Source: Escherichia phage Elenatom. Taken from it: a stretch of DNA of 64,000 nt. The stretch lies in sequence record PP925844.1, one strand, 5' to 3'. Made by a program: the position numbers and the translations under genes. Shown here piece by piece: positions 13,938 to 17,296 of this stretch. The notes under the pieces are model-generated. The model saw only the letters and a list, made by a program, of their open reading frames with translations. It had not been told where the DNA came from and did no database searches. Position 1 is the first letter of the stretch, and every line of letters begins with the position of its first letter.

Positions 13938-14327
13938 TTAATCCAAAATATTATTAGGCATTGGTTGAACACTCACAAGTTCTTTAAAGAACTCAGTAGA
14001 GTCAGGCAATTTAACCATTTCCGGAGCATGCTTACTGAATTTATGTTTACATTGACGGCATTTATATTCAAGCTCTGGTTTACGCCAGTTAATCAACTGA
14101 ACTTGTTCAGTACCGCATTCAGGGCAATTAGGAACGTTTTTAGAAGCTCTTTCACGTCGTTCAACCATAGCCATAATAGCATCCCATGCTGGAGGTTTAA
14201 AATCTAAATCGTCGCAGCCGTGAATCTTTCCACGCATTTCCATATCATCTTCCTCACCAGCCATAATAATTTTAATTAAACTGGAATTACTTGAAGCTGC
14301 AATGTCTTCTAATAAACGCTTTTTCAT
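13938..14327 (-). CDS. Hypothetical protein with zinc-ribbon-like Cys pairs
   Basis: 129-aa ORF; CPEC...CRQC. Confidence 0.5.
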
Positions 14328-15253
14328 TTCAATACCTCAATAGCATTACGTAAACCATTTGCTTTTGCATTAAGAGCTTTTAACAATTTGGTGTGTTCTG
14401 CAATTTGGGCTTCAACTTCAATCAAACGGGCATTGAGATATTCACGTTCTTCACTCAGATTATCAACCTTTTCTACTTTAGGCTCTTTTACAACTGTCTT
14501 ATATGTATTAGGGTTCTTCAGTTTAATTAGAATGCGTGAACTGTATAACATTGAACCATTATCTTCGGTTTCGTCATACATTTCCACTACGTCCATAATT
14601 TTTAACATCATGCGGAGTTTATAAGACAACGAACGAATAGTTTTGTTGTGCTTATTAATTTCTTTAGCTGTCATGGTGCCAAGATTACGTGAGTAATAAT
14701 AAGGAACCTGGATATTAATTAATACTGATGAACCACCTGGCTTGTGTGTTACTTCATCAGCAATAACCCAGTCCTTAACATGAACTGTATTTGTACGGTC
14801 ATCGCCCGCGGTAAATAGTTTGCGAGCATGCTTAAAAAGCATATTCACTTGGTCATTGAATTGACAAGCAAATTTATCAGCAAATTTAGTTTCAGGAATG
14901 GTAGATAACCAATCAGCCAAATGGGTCTTTTTAACATCGTTAACAATAGTAAATTGAACCAAATCGGTTATAGATGTCGCAGATTTAATGAAGCTCGGCT
15001 TCATAAAGTTTTTAATGTTCTCATGAGCTACAGTAGAAGATAACATACGAGAACGTTTAAACCATTCAAGCAAATTGCCTAACGAATGAGAATAAGCGTT
15101 TTGAGTATCTTTACAGATATGATTTTCCTGACCAACATATTGAAGGAAATCACGAAGAATATTATTGATTACTGCTCTGTGCCCGATCTGATAATTACGG
15201 CGTTTAGTAATAAGGCTGTCAAAATAATCAATATAATGTTTACGAGTTTTCAT
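14324..15253 (-). CDS. Hypothetical protein with C-terminal coiled coil
   Basis: 309-aa ORF; C-terminal heptad-rich segment. Confidence 0.55.
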   Translation of the reverse strand: MKTRKHYIDYFDSLITKRRNYQIGHRAVINNILRDFLQYVGQENHICKDTQNAYSHSLGNLLEWFKRSRMLSSTVAHENIKNFMKPSFIKSATSITDLVQFTIVNDVKKTHLADWLSTIPETKFADKFACQFNDQVNMLFKHARKLFTAGDDRTNTVHVKDWVIADEVTHKPGGSSVLINIQVPYYYSRNLGTMTAKEINKHNKTIRSLSYKLRMMLKIMDVVEMYDETEDNGSMLYSSRILIKLKNPNTYKTVVKEPKVEKVDNLSEEREYLNARLIEVEAQIAEHTKLLKALNAKANGLRNAIEVLK

Positions 15254-15327
15254 GTTCTTCTCACTTGGTTAATGATTTGATATATTCGTTACGAGTCATA
15301 ATAATCTCCTCAGTAGAAAGTAAAAAC

Positions 15328-15356
15328 ATTATACCACATCCTTGTGGCAAAGTAAA
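15328..15356 (-). promoter_or_regulatory. T4 early-type promoter (TTTACT-17-TATAAT)
   Basis: Consensus hexamers, 17-bp spacer containing small inverted repeat CCACAaggaTGTGG. Confidence 0.6.
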
Positions 15357-16379
15357 CTAGTTCAGTGCATTTAGTGCATTGTTCAGTTTAGAACGTTGCT
15401 TTGTCAGATTTTGAACCCTTGACTGAGCTTGTTCTAACGCCTTTTCAGCTTCTAGCACTTCATTGGTCGCTTTAACGAGTTCATCATCTACTGCCTTAAG
15501 AGACTTCTCAATCGCGTCAGCGTGCCATTTTTCTACAGGTTTAAAATTTGAATTTTCAGTAGGAAGAAAACTCACTTTATTAAGTTTACATGCATCTATA
15601 TTGCTTGAGCTATACATCCAAAATTTAGGATCGTTTGATGAGTAATTGGATAAATTTAAGATATCTTGCACTTCCTGCTTTTTCTCTTGCGGGACTTCGT
15701 CCTTTCTCAAAAAATCGTATTTAAATGAAACGATCATATCAAGTTCATATGTTGTTGTATGTTCCCAATTTCGCTCAAAACGAGGTAAAATCTTAGATTG
15801 AACAGCAGCAACAACATCCATATACTTAAATGCTTCTGTCAGCTGTGATTTAAGACATTCACAAATTGAAAGAGAATTTTTAGTATTAGGCTTAAAGCTA
15901 ATTCGTGCAGTTCTATTATTTTCTTTTAACGGTCTTACTTCCATCTGAAGAGTATAACCATCAAATTTCAGGTTCTTTAAGTTAATGTCAGAACCTTTTA
16001 ATCGACTAGCCGTCGACAAAATTTGCTTTAATTGTCTACGGAACAGAGCAATAAATCTCCATTCAATGCGATAATGATTTGGATTGAAAAATCCAGATGA
16101 TAAATCGACCTTACTCTGACCAACACCTTGAACAAATAGAGGATTTTTATAATCAATAGTTTTACAGAAATCGGTGAGCTGTTCACGAGCAGTCATTTGT
16201 GTAATATACCCAGCTTCATTAAAATTACGCACCCATTCGCTGCTATTCGTATACTTAAAGTGATGAATAACACGATTAACTTTATCAGGGTCTAAATTAT
16301 TTTCACACAAAAATGTCATAACATCACGAGTATAACTGGCATTACGAACCATATCTTCAATTTGAGAACGAGTTTTCAT
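15357..16379 (-). CDS. Hypothetical protein with C-terminal coiled coil
   Basis: 340-aa ORF; C-terminal segment ...EAEKALEQAQSRVQNLTKQRSKLNNALNALN. Confidence 0.55.
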   Translation of the reverse strand: MKTRSQIEDMVRNASYTRDVMTFLCENNLDPDKVNRVIHHFKYTNSSEWVRNFNEAGYITQMTAREQLTDFCKTIDYKNPLFVQGVGQSKVDLSSGFFNPNHYRIEWRFIALFRRQLKQILSTASRLKGSDINLKNLKFDGYTLQMEVRPLKENNRTARISFKPNTKNSLSICECLKSQLTEAFKYMDVVAAVQSKILPRFERNWEHTTTYELDMIVSFKYDFLRKDEVPQEKKQEVQDILNLSNYSSNDPKFWMYSSSNIDACKLNKVSFLPTENSNFKPVEKWHADAIEKSLKAVDDELVKATNEVLEAEKALEQAQSRVQNLTKQRSKLNNALNALN

Positions 16380-16387
16380 GGTGTTCC

Positions 16388-17296
16388 TTAAGATTTAAGT
16401 AAATCAACAATTTTAATTAACTTTTCACGCTCAGATTTAGCTTTACTACTCAATCCAGATAGTCTGAAAATTTCATCATCATATTGCTGAATAGAAATAT
16501 TTAGCTCTTCAATCTGCTTATTAAAATAATCAATTTGTTCAGAATGTTTTTCATTACTACGAACTGGTACAGGTTTCGTAGGCAATTTAGTTGAACTGGA
16601 TTCATCCGGGCGATAAATTAAAATACAACTTGAACCAATAGGGCATTTAGCACCAGATGAATATTCCAGTGTTCCAGCTTCTTTTAAAACTTCAAAAGCT
16701 AAACAGAGATGATGTCCCATATTAACATAATCTGTAGAGCGAGCTCTGATGTAATAATCATCTCCACGAGTACTAAATTTAAAGCATTTAAGGTCTTCTG
16801 TATTATTGGTCTTAAAAATCATTTGTTTATCTAGACCTTTAGCTAATCGAGCGCCTAATGCTAATAATCGTCGTTGATTTTCCCACAAATCCGCAATCAT
16901 TTGGTCAAATGATAATTTCGGCATTAGTCGACCATAAAGGTCATATCCTTTATTATAATTGCGAAGAATTTCACTTGCATTAATACGAGACAACGCTCCA
17001 ATTTTATTAAGGGCTTTCATGATGCGATTAGATAAACCCATTCCAGATCCGTTTGTTCGTTGCAAATGTTTATCTAATCCAAACCCAATATCAACTTTAA
17101 ATTTATCTAAAATTTCAGCATGAACATCTCTGTCAATAACATTCAAATCCAAAGTTGGGTTAAATCTATGAAAAAATTTATCTGGCTCTCCACGACGAAG
17201 TACAGTCCATTCATTTAATTTTTTATTAACTAAAGATTTAATTACTGCATTGACATTATTAATTACTACTGACATATTTTCCTCACTCAATTTCAA
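16388..17296 (-). CDS. Hypothetical protein with C-terminal coiled coil
   Basis: 302-aa ORF. Confidence 0.55.
   Translation of the reverse strand: MKLSEENMSVVINNVNAVIKSLVNKKLNEWTVLRRGEPDKFFHRFNPTLDLNVIDRDVHAEILDKFKVDIGFGLDKHLQRTNGSGMGLSNRIMKALNKIGALSRINASEILRNYNKGYDLYGRLMPKLSFDQMIADLWENQRRLLALGARLAKGLDKQMIFKTNNTEDLKCFKFSTRGDDYYIRARSTDYVNMGHHLCLAFEVLKEAGTLEYSSGAKCPIGSSCILIYRPDESSSTKLPTKPVPVRSNEKHSEQIDYFNKQIEELNISIQQYDDEIFRLSGLSSKAKSEREKLIKIVDLLKS

Follow-up and report, generated by a model that had tools for sequence, protein, structure and literature searches.

T4 is the best-studied phage, yet no function has been assigned to most of its nrdC.N genes. In Escherichia phage Elenatom (sequence record PP925844.1), of which a stretch of 64,000 nucleotides was analysed and is here called the window, three of these genes, nrdC.3, nrdC.5 and nrdC.6, form a tandem array. 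All three are already known as T4 genes, and NrdC.5 has a published counter-defence function. Srikant, Guegler and Laub (eLife 2022) described an evolved T4 deletion clone that was unable to infect ECOR17. Disruption of dsr1 in ECOR17 restored infection by this clone, plasmid-borne dsr1 protected MG1655 from it, and T4 nrdC.5 supplied in trans allowed it to plate again on MG1655 with the ECOR17 dsr1; DSR1, a SIR2-NADase (sirtuin) defence, is overcome by T4 NrdC.5 (PMC9391042). DSR1 was still called poorly characterised in a 2026 paper, and it is also overcome indirectly, through the rebuilding of NAD+ by NARP3 (PMC13464706). According to a 2026 preprint, the tetratricopeptide repeat (TPR) sensor of Dsr1, which is shared with Avs7, recognises the phage major capsid protein (PMC12803255). 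A second T-even gene product, Gp49.2 of T6, was reported in 2026 to inhibit the OLD defence (PMC13096335). The array proteins of Elenatom appear to be diverged paralogues with a common architecture, and probably represent early anti-defence proteins.

The window belongs to a T4-like phage of the genus Tequatrovirus, as indicated by the neighbouring genes, which encode endonuclease VII, Pin, the NrdC thioredoxin, the AAA-like NrdC.10 and the nucleotidyltransferase NrdC.11, and by the 93–97% DNA identity of the region to more than 470 Tequatrovirus records. The locus is syntenic with that of T4 (endonuclease VII, pin, nrdC, nrdC.1–.11), and the three array genes follow one another in the same direction on the minus strand:

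Positions 14324–15253, minus strand: nrdC.3 orthologue, 309 amino acids (aa), identified by phrog_1435 and PF26897.
Positions 15357–16379, minus strand: nrdC.5 orthologue, 340 aa, identified by Pfam DUF7235 (PF23882) and phrog_2351.
Positions 16388–17275, minus strand: nrdC.6 orthologue, 295 aa from the ATG at 17275, identified by phrog_2257 and PF26899.

Residues 1–340 of NrdC.5 match positions 1–307 of the DUF7235 profile with 404.8 bits (cut-off of 30), and the protein matches phrog_2351 with an E-value of 2.7e-166. It is 97% identical to the protein of phage 232Ecol030PP and 93.8% identical to T4 NrdC.5. The gene is located directly downstream of nrdC.6, and the order is that of KMB40, 232Ecol030PP, T4 and T6, except for the missing nrdC.4. 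The original prediction had assigned an unknown role to the whole set, which does not hold for the middle gene, the orthologue of the anti-DSR1 gene of T4 (PMC9391042).

NrdC.6 (phrog_2257, E-value of 4.9e-153; PF26899 on all homologues) is encoded between nrdC.7 and nrdC.5, and is 98–99% identical to its closest orthologues, including that of T4 (98%). The open reading frame (ORF) list gave this third gene as 16388–17296, with 302 aa from an upstream TTG at 17296. Its start is placed at the ATG at 17275, because a GAGG Shine-Dalgarno sequence lies 5 nt upstream, the TTG form overlaps the end of nrdC.7, and all annotated orthologues use the ATG; the upper coordinate is corrected by 21 nt.

NrdC.3 matches phrog_1435 over residues 2–309 (E-value of 3.2e-115), and PF26897 is present on all its homologues. 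Its gene occupies the expected place upstream of nrdC.2, and the protein is 97% identical to NrdC.3 of KMB40. It is only 60% identical to T4 NrdC.3, and represents a second allele class, distinct from that of T4 (locus L038, 7536–8462). Identities in tblastn fall into two or three discrete classes, of at least 90% (357 records), 60–80% (208 records) and below 60% (84 records), which suggests allele replacement rather than gradual drift.

Relatives have about 1 kb more between nrdC.3 and nrdC.5, which corresponds to NrdC.4, a protein of 333–343 aa. In the window, 1,002 bp are missing between two copies of the 8-bp microhomology AATGATTT, with the junction at 15271–15278. Two features are located at and near this site:

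Positions 15261–15299, minus strand: remnant of nrdC.4, 12 codons (MTRNEYIKSLTK, then a stop) with its own GAGGAG ribosome-binding site, found by comparison with relatives.
Positions 15328–15356, minus strand: promoter-like site of the sigma-70 or T4-early type (TTTACT, a 17-nt spacer, TG, TATAAT), by consensus match only.

The promoter-like site precedes nrdC.4 in relatives and now lies just upstream of nrdC.3. Microhomology deletions have been documented in the laboratory evolution of T4 (PMC9391042), and the loss of nrdC.4 is an instance of the same mechanism. Since nrdC.4 is deleted in the window, the three-gene state is derived from a four-gene array; the earlier description of three consecutive genes is thus correct for this phage and does not extend to most of its relatives, which have four. 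About 7% of the Tequatrovirus records apparently have no NrdC.4 at an identity of at least 80%.

The array had been singled out for co-directional genes of similar size, each ending in a heptad-rich segment of about 50 residues, and this description was confirmed. In a heptad-propensity scan, the best 28-residue segment of each protein was compared with 300 shuffles of the same protein. This segment was C-terminal in all three proteins, and its score was reached by two of the 300 shuffles for NrdC.3 and by none of the 300 for either NrdC.5 or NrdC.6. The last 49 residues of each protein form seven heptads in a single unbroken register, with L, I, V or A at most a and d positions, and AlphaFold2 models, obtained for NrdC.5 and NrdC.6 only, place C-terminal helices in both. 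The tails are located as follows:

Positions 14327–14473, minus strand: coiled-coil tail of NrdC.3, residues 261–309, seven heptads (heptad scan, alignment).
Positions 15360–15539, minus strand: long terminal helix or coiled-coil tail of NrdC.5, residues 281–340, ending in RSKLNNALNALN (heptad scan, AlphaFold2, alignment).
Positions 16391–16552, minus strand: tail of NrdC.6, residues 242–295, with helices 242–271 and 277–294 around a conserved Gly, ending in REKLIKIVDLLKS (heptad scan, AlphaFold2, alignment).

These heptad tails suggest that the array proteins may self-associate. The neighbouring NrdC.8 (175 aa; 17746–18273, minus strand) also has a heptad-rich tail, at residues 136–175, with a score reached by one of 300 shuffles. 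In hhalign comparisons it showed no detectable relation to the NrdC.3–6 family, either at full length (P of at least 0.056) or with its tail only (P of at least 0.014).

BLASTP among NrdC.3, NrdC.5 and NrdC.6 of the window gave no significant match, and the only BLASTP signal was between NrdC.3 and the NrdC.4 of relatives (24% identity over 229 aa). Profile comparisons in hhalign with close orthologues only (effective number of sequences, 1.2–2.2) gave no clear outcome, the alignments being too shallow. They became informative once divergent orthologues, from Dhakavirus- and Mosigvirus-like loci (L007–L015), and single-copy bridging homologues were added to the profiles. The bridges are single genes for 292–343 aa in the nrdC.10-to-nrdC interval of other T4-like genera: CIP9_194 of Kanagawavirus, PM2_092 of Mosugukvirus, KP1_67 of Jiaodavirus, gp94 of Tegunavirus, and DLP1_120 of an Acinetobacter phage.

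With these profiles, NrdC.3 matched NrdC.4 with a probability of 97.8 (P of 6.6e-13, 211 columns), and the NrdC.3/4 profile matched NrdC.5 (probability of 92, P of 6.5e-7, 139 columns) and KP1 (probability of 94, P of 1.3e-7, 140 columns). The profile of CIP9 and PM2 was matched by both NrdC.5 (probability of 92, P of 6.7e-7, 279 columns) and NrdC.6 (probability of 89, P of 2.2e-6, 163 columns), and the NrdC.6 hidden Markov model (HMM) found CIP9-like proteins in a database of 505 ORFs with E-values of 5e-7 to 1e-6. The unrelated neighbours NrdC.8, NrdC.10 and NrdC.11, used as full-length controls in hhalign, gave P of at least 0.056 against every family. When the tails were removed, the heads of NrdC.3/4 still matched that of NrdC.5 (P of 8.7e-6, probability of 83) and that of KP1 (P of 5.6e-8), and KP1 matched CIP9/PM2 (P of 8.5e-5). 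Tails alone matched the bridge with P of 1e-7 for NrdC.5 and 3.5e-5 for NrdC.6.

A superfamily alignment of 13 representatives in MAFFT presented six collinear motif blocks:

Block 1: h..h+.S+hhS...A...L..FG
Block 2: YG/GQ turn
Block 3: core helix, F..-F+.n.+.hL..u.RL..G.D
Block 4: L...L..M-.V
Block 5: P-V motif
Block 6: terminal +.KL..Ah..LK

The core helix motif is common to NrdC.3, NrdC.4, NrdC.5, NrdC.6 and the single-copy homologues. In the window it is found at these places:

Positions 14798–14881, minus strand: conserved core helix motif of NrdC.3, about residues 125–152, ADKFACQFNDQVNMLFKHARKLFTAGDD (profile comparison, alignment).
Positions 15987–16073, minus strand: conserved core helix motif of NrdC.5, about residues 103–131, YRIEWRFIALFRRQLKQILSTASRLKGSD (AlphaFold2, hhalign, alignment).
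Positions 16829–16912, minus strand: conserved core helix motif of NrdC.6, about residues 122–149, ending in QMIADLWENQRRLLALGARLAKGLD (AlphaFold2, hhalign, alignment).

The predicted structures follow one plan. The NrdC.6 model (mean predicted local distance difference test, pLDDT, of 78.9; predicted template modelling score of 0.66) consists of helices in residues 3–150, a strand-strand-helix-strand-strand unit in residues 165–221, a disordered segment in residues 222–241, and the tail helices 242–271 and 277–294. In the better parts of the NrdC.5 model, helices extend to residue 123 and are followed by three strands, one helix and two more strands (residues 132–219), by disorder in residues 220–280, and by a terminal helix in residues 281–339 with pLDDT of 71–91. 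The order of secondary structures agrees between the two models, that of NrdC.5 having a mean pLDDT of 56.5. The family plan then begins with an N-terminal subdomain of helices and the conserved core helix, after which come G-x-D, a small beta sheet of the order beta-beta-(beta)-alpha-beta-beta, a disordered linker that ends in the P-V motif, and a coiled coil of about 50 residues that ends in KLxxAhxxLK.

An alternative is that the three proteins are unrelated and gained their coiled coils independently, the profile similarity being an artefact of coiled coils or composition. This would agree with the insignificant BLASTP results among the window proteins, with NrdC.5 and NrdC.6 profiles that do not match directly, with the many weak matches of a plain coiled-coil kind (DUF4164, CENP-F, PgrA, prefoldin), and with a neighbour, NrdC.8, that has a heptad tail and is yet unrelated. 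However, comparisons of heads only stay significant (P of 5.6e-8 to 8.5e-5), all alignments are collinear, the controls give P of at least 0.056 at full length and of at least 0.014 for the NrdC.8 tail, the models of NrdC.5 and NrdC.6 have the same order of secondary structures, and the motif blocks are visible by eye. For NrdC.3 and NrdC.5 such convergence is largely refuted by the profiles, and for the set as a whole we regard it as very improbable. NrdC.3, NrdC.4 and NrdC.5 are thus considered paralogues with high confidence on the basis of these alignments, and NrdC.6, the weakest link, is assigned to their superfamily with a confidence that is moderate to good. The shared architecture without obvious identity that was first noticed goes beyond a similar design, since hhalign, HMMER and the motif alignment point to remote paralogues. 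NrdC.3 and NrdC.4 were already placed together in PHROGs (phrog_1435). What is new is the remote homology that, as judged from profiles, unites NrdC.3/4, NrdC.5 and NrdC.6, listed in the databases as three separate families. An exhaustive HMMER search with the NrdC.5 profile returned no other paralogue family among its matches, and the superfamily is invisible to HMMER alone. Scans for loci related to the bridging proteins retrieved almost nothing but near-identical copies.

The conservation of the tails bears on what they do. Family tails end in the conserved KLxxAhxxLK in the superfamily alignment. Among orthologues of NrdC.6 that are 44–98% identical, the invariant tail residues are Q247, I248, F251, D266, D267, E268, I269, F270, K280, E282, R283, L292, L293 and K294. 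Conservation in this protein is highest in the core helix region and in the tail, where it extends to the non-core positions D266, D267 and E268 and to the three C-terminal residues, a constraint that, as far as the alignment indicates, exceeds the needs of a generic coiled coil. Rather than drive self-association, the tails might bring the paralogues together or anchor them to a common partner from phage or host, in which case the array would make one multi-headed complex and not independent inhibitors. This arrangement would account for tails that stay conserved outside the heptad core and at their very end (KLxxAhxxLK) although the heads are very divergent, for tail-only profile matches as strong as those of the heads, and for genes that are adjacent, co-directional and probably co-expressed early. 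On the other hand, most genera have one family member, and for that reason the ancestral tail cannot have paired paralogues. The paralogues are also lost independently in nature, and plasmid-borne NrdC.5 alone was enough against DSR1, in a phage with deletions that are not mapped here. A joint complex of this kind is therefore held to be quite unlikely.

Searches beyond the family recovered uncharacterised phage proteins and no enzyme. In BFVD, the NrdC.6 model matched uncharacterised proteins of 304–346 aa (probability of 0.87–1.0, template modelling score, TM, up to 0.49) from T4-like phages of Enterobacter, Pectobacterium, Acinetobacter, Klebsiella, Citrobacter and Serratia. One of these, a 346-aa protein of Serratia phage CBH8, was also the top match of the NrdC.5 model (pLDDT of 56.5); the fold search with this model is mostly meaningless at such a mean pLDDT, and its top match alone was used. 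The fold, as modelled, is common within Straboviridae and was matched to no known fold. No match of the NrdC.6 model in the PDB was significant (best E-value of 0.016, TM of about 0.2, with de novo designs and H-NOX), and sequence-profile searches of the PDB gave nothing usable, the best being Cdc16 and prefoldin at E-values of 0.3–0.8. Pfam and NCBIfam presented no enzyme domain in any of the three proteins, and the PADLOC defence-system HMMs gave zero matches at E-values up to 1, in agreement with the earlier remark that no catalytic motif is recognisable.

Several weak domain matches were discarded. In NrdC.3, the PHL domain scored 20.2 bits, below the cut-off of 23.7, and the Phage_int_SAM_1 or XerD N-terminus at residues 30–86 scored 13.6–17.6 bits against cut-offs of 22 to 330, with the catalytic domain absent. 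In NrdC.5, the matches to DUF4164, CENP-F, SNARE, AAA_23, PgrA and IcmG reflect coiled-coil composition, since they are confined to the tail or below the cut-off. A thioredoxin or glutaredoxin identity was rejected as well, Pfam and NCBIfam giving no such match and no CxxC occurring in any of the three sequences. Many GenBank records (e.g., OR539220.1 and NC_054907.1) label nrdC.1–nrdC.11, including the array, as thioredoxin, and the RefSeq record of T6 names NrdC.5 a tail sheath stabilizer and completion protein. The thioredoxin label stems from the locus name nrdC.N, and the array labels are propagated annotation errors, because both a thioredoxin domain and a CxxC are absent.

The family is narrow, since the NrdC.5 profile found just 13 matches in HMMER among 1.84 billion cluster representatives. 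It is restricted to Straboviridae, with a single copy in the other T4-like genera. In more distant Straboviridae, from Aeromonas, Cronobacter and Vibrio, the synteny is absent and no family member was found in the regions fetched. Counts of records, obtained by tblastn in a phage collection, were as follows:

NrdC.10: 1,311 records matched, 502 at an identity of at least 95%.
NrdC.6: 741 records matched, 501 at an identity of at least 80%.
NrdC.3: 653 records matched, 361 at an identity of at least 80%.
NrdC.4: 578 records matched, 465 at an identity of at least 80%.
NrdC.5: 567 records matched, 494 at an identity of at least 80%.

Independent natural losses include nrdC.4 in the window, most of nrdC.6 in phage Pinarejo, where the last 47 codons or so are left (L036, 4001–4141), and the stretch from nrdC.5 to nrdC.3 in ACG-C40, where nrdC.5 is reduced to 71 codons and nrdC.3 to its tail (L037, 3805–4216). 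The protein P0034 is an in-frame deletion chimera, NrdC.5(146–269)::NrdC.3(136–309). The idea that heads are swapped as modules onto kept tails was rejected and not used as evidence: Pinarejo and ACG-C40 are plain deletions, P0034 is a deletion chimera, and P0208 resembles an assembly artefact. P0202 alone is ambiguous in this respect. It is a 173-aa ORF (L016, an 803-bp ENA contig, 120–641) in the nrdC.5 slot, directly upstream of an nrdC.4 start, in which an unrelated N-terminal part of 118 residues is joined to a near-identical NrdC.5 tail. Its frame is open further upstream, and a stretch 'IYAF...YLKIGDT' resembles GIY-YIG/T5orf172 domains; judged from its sequence, this ORF may reflect the insertion of a mobile element into nrdC.5, or its head may truly have been replaced. 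A different rearrangement is seen in NrdC.6 of Shigella phage Sf25 (P0092, 378 aa), in which about 83 residues (IRAHSTDYVNMGHH...FNKQIEEL) are repeated exactly and in tandem within the protein; the repeated stretch takes in the beta-sheet subdomain and the linker and reaches into the first part of the tail.

The ratio of nonsynonymous to synonymous substitution rates (dN/dS), calculated from nine Tequatrovirus sequences, was 0.29 for nrdC.3, 0.19 for nrdC.5 and 0.09 for nrdC.6, against 0.03–0.06 for nrdC.2,.8,.10 and.11. From these values, all three are real genes under selection, and the evolution of nrdC.3 and nrdC.5 is faster than that of the genes around them. Around 1 kb from the array, at 13043–13252 on the minus strand, is a gene for 69 aa that is 95% identical to the T6 gene and occupies the gp49.2 position, and from gene order and this identity it is assigned as gp49.2.

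Distribution and selection also bear on a role of the family in host takeover or housekeeping, such as the modulation of a host or phage complex or of nucleotide and NAD metabolism, in which case the anti-DSR1 effect of NrdC.5 would be indirect and its paralogues would not be specialised antagonists of immunity. Such a role would suit the strong conservation of nrdC.6 (dN/dS of 0.09, 98% identity to T4), the most widely retained member (741 records), and the retention in many genera, among them phages of Acinetobacter, of a single-copy homologue in a syntenic place. It is also compatible with a literature that, as searched, does not describe the mechanism of NrdC.5, and with the indirect defeat of DSR1 by NAD+ rebuilding (NARP3, PMC13464706). 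The searches of Pfam, NCBIfam and PDB, however, show no enzymatic or metabolite-binding domain, and the genes are dispensable, with repeated loss in natural isolates and in laboratory evolution. The dN/dS is raised in nrdC.3 and nrdC.5, the allele classes of nrdC.3 are very divergent, and two proven counter-defence genes are found in the surrounding region. Weighing both sides, we consider a takeover or housekeeping role unlikely.

Starting from the observed gene identity, paralogy, architecture, purifying selection and patchy presence or absence, we propose that nrdC.3, nrdC.5 and nrdC.6 are diverged paralogues in a tandem array of early oligomeric anti-defence proteins, which we hold to be the probable explanation. 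The products of the array, expressed early in infection, would be stoichiometric inhibitors without enzymatic activity, directed at immune proteins of the host. The choice of target would lie with the heads, which diverge fast: that of NrdC.5 would bind DSR1, plausibly at the TPR sensor or the NADase domain, by analogy with the blocking of DSR2 by DSAD1. Through the conserved tail the proteins would form oligomers and gain avidity, either for defence proteins that are themselves oligomeric or for a common partner. NrdC.3 and NrdC.6 would be candidate inhibitors of other defences.

A more specific version of the anti-defence proposal, which is possible and put forward tentatively, is that nrdC.3–nrdC.6 are a multigene family of immune antagonists, in which an ancestral single-copy tailed inhibitor was duplicated three times in T-even coliphages and its heads were retuned. 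The heads would then fit different sensors, for instance TPR sensors of capsid protein of the Dsr1/Avs7 type, and the tail would be an oligomeric scaffold.

Several points weigh against the anti-defence proposal. The literature searched describes neither the mechanism of NrdC.5 on DSR1 nor a function for nrdC.3, nrdC.4 or nrdC.6. A direct binding of NrdC.5 to DSR1 is inferred by analogy, and the anti-DSR1 activity of the window allele, which is 6% diverged from that of T4, is presumed. The AlphaFold2 model of NrdC.5 is poor, with the mean pLDDT given above, and the models are of monomers only. The direct profile comparison of NrdC.5 with NrdC.6 gives no match; the head of NrdC.6 matches CIP9/PM2 with P of 7.3e-5 over just 34 columns, so that its family link is that of head and tail together. 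In addition, the fairly strong constraint on nrdC.6 (dN/dS of 0.09) fits an arms-race gene less well.

Phage accessory regions are rich in counter-defence genes, and in kind the result is not surprising. NrdC.3, NrdC.4 and NrdC.6 are candidate defence inhibitors because they are paralogues of NrdC.5 and, if the multigene-family version is true, would be three undiscovered inhibitors with a shared, transferable architecture. A variable head combined with a constant oligomerising tail may represent a design principle, and the family could offer a handle on how DSR1 is blocked. It also follows that the widespread thioredoxin annotation of the array genes is wrong.

Among the neighbouring genes, NrdC.10 (AAA-like; 18738–19718, minus strand) is far more widely conserved than the array, occurring also in Vibrio, Aeromonas, Acinetobacter, Xanthomonas and jumbo phages. 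It is at least 99% identical within Tequatrovirus and served as the synteny anchor. Between nrdC.11 and nrdC.10, at 19800–19819, there is a G+C-rich hairpin, GGAGCCCGAAGGCTCC, followed by a T-run, on both strands; no other site in the region scanned is as strongly terminator-like.

Compared with known systems, the closest is T4 NrdC.5 itself, with which the window protein shares the full-length DUF7235 match, 93.8% identity and the position downstream of nrdC.6. The T4 protein is the one that was tested, whereas the window has an allele of it, followed directly by nrdC.3 because of the deletion of nrdC.4. Likewise, the window proteins are full-length members of the families of T4 NrdC.3/NrdC.4 and NrdC.6, which are uncharacterised early ORFs, and the synteny is kept, but window NrdC.3 belongs to an allele class just 60% identical to that of T4. 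In mode of action, the proposed model resembles DSAD1 of phage SPbeta, a protein without enzymatic domains that is reported to block the SIR2-NADase DSR2 by binding (PMC10973363, PMC11087589). DSAD1 acts on DSR2, in another phage lineage and host; the likeness is one of mode only, with the binding of NrdC.5 to DSR1 being putative. The organization of the locus recalls the dmd-tifA-adfA 'anti-TA (toxin-antitoxin) island' of T4 and anti-CRISPR loci, which are likewise clustered: the nrdC array is early, dispensable and variable, is accompanied by counter-defence genes, and is remodelled by microhomology deletions, with NrdC.5 (against DSR1) and gp49.2 (against OLD) as its proven counter-defence genes. 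The known anti-defence islands consist mostly of unrelated small proteins, whereas the nrdC array consists of paralogues with a conserved tail of the oligomerisation type.

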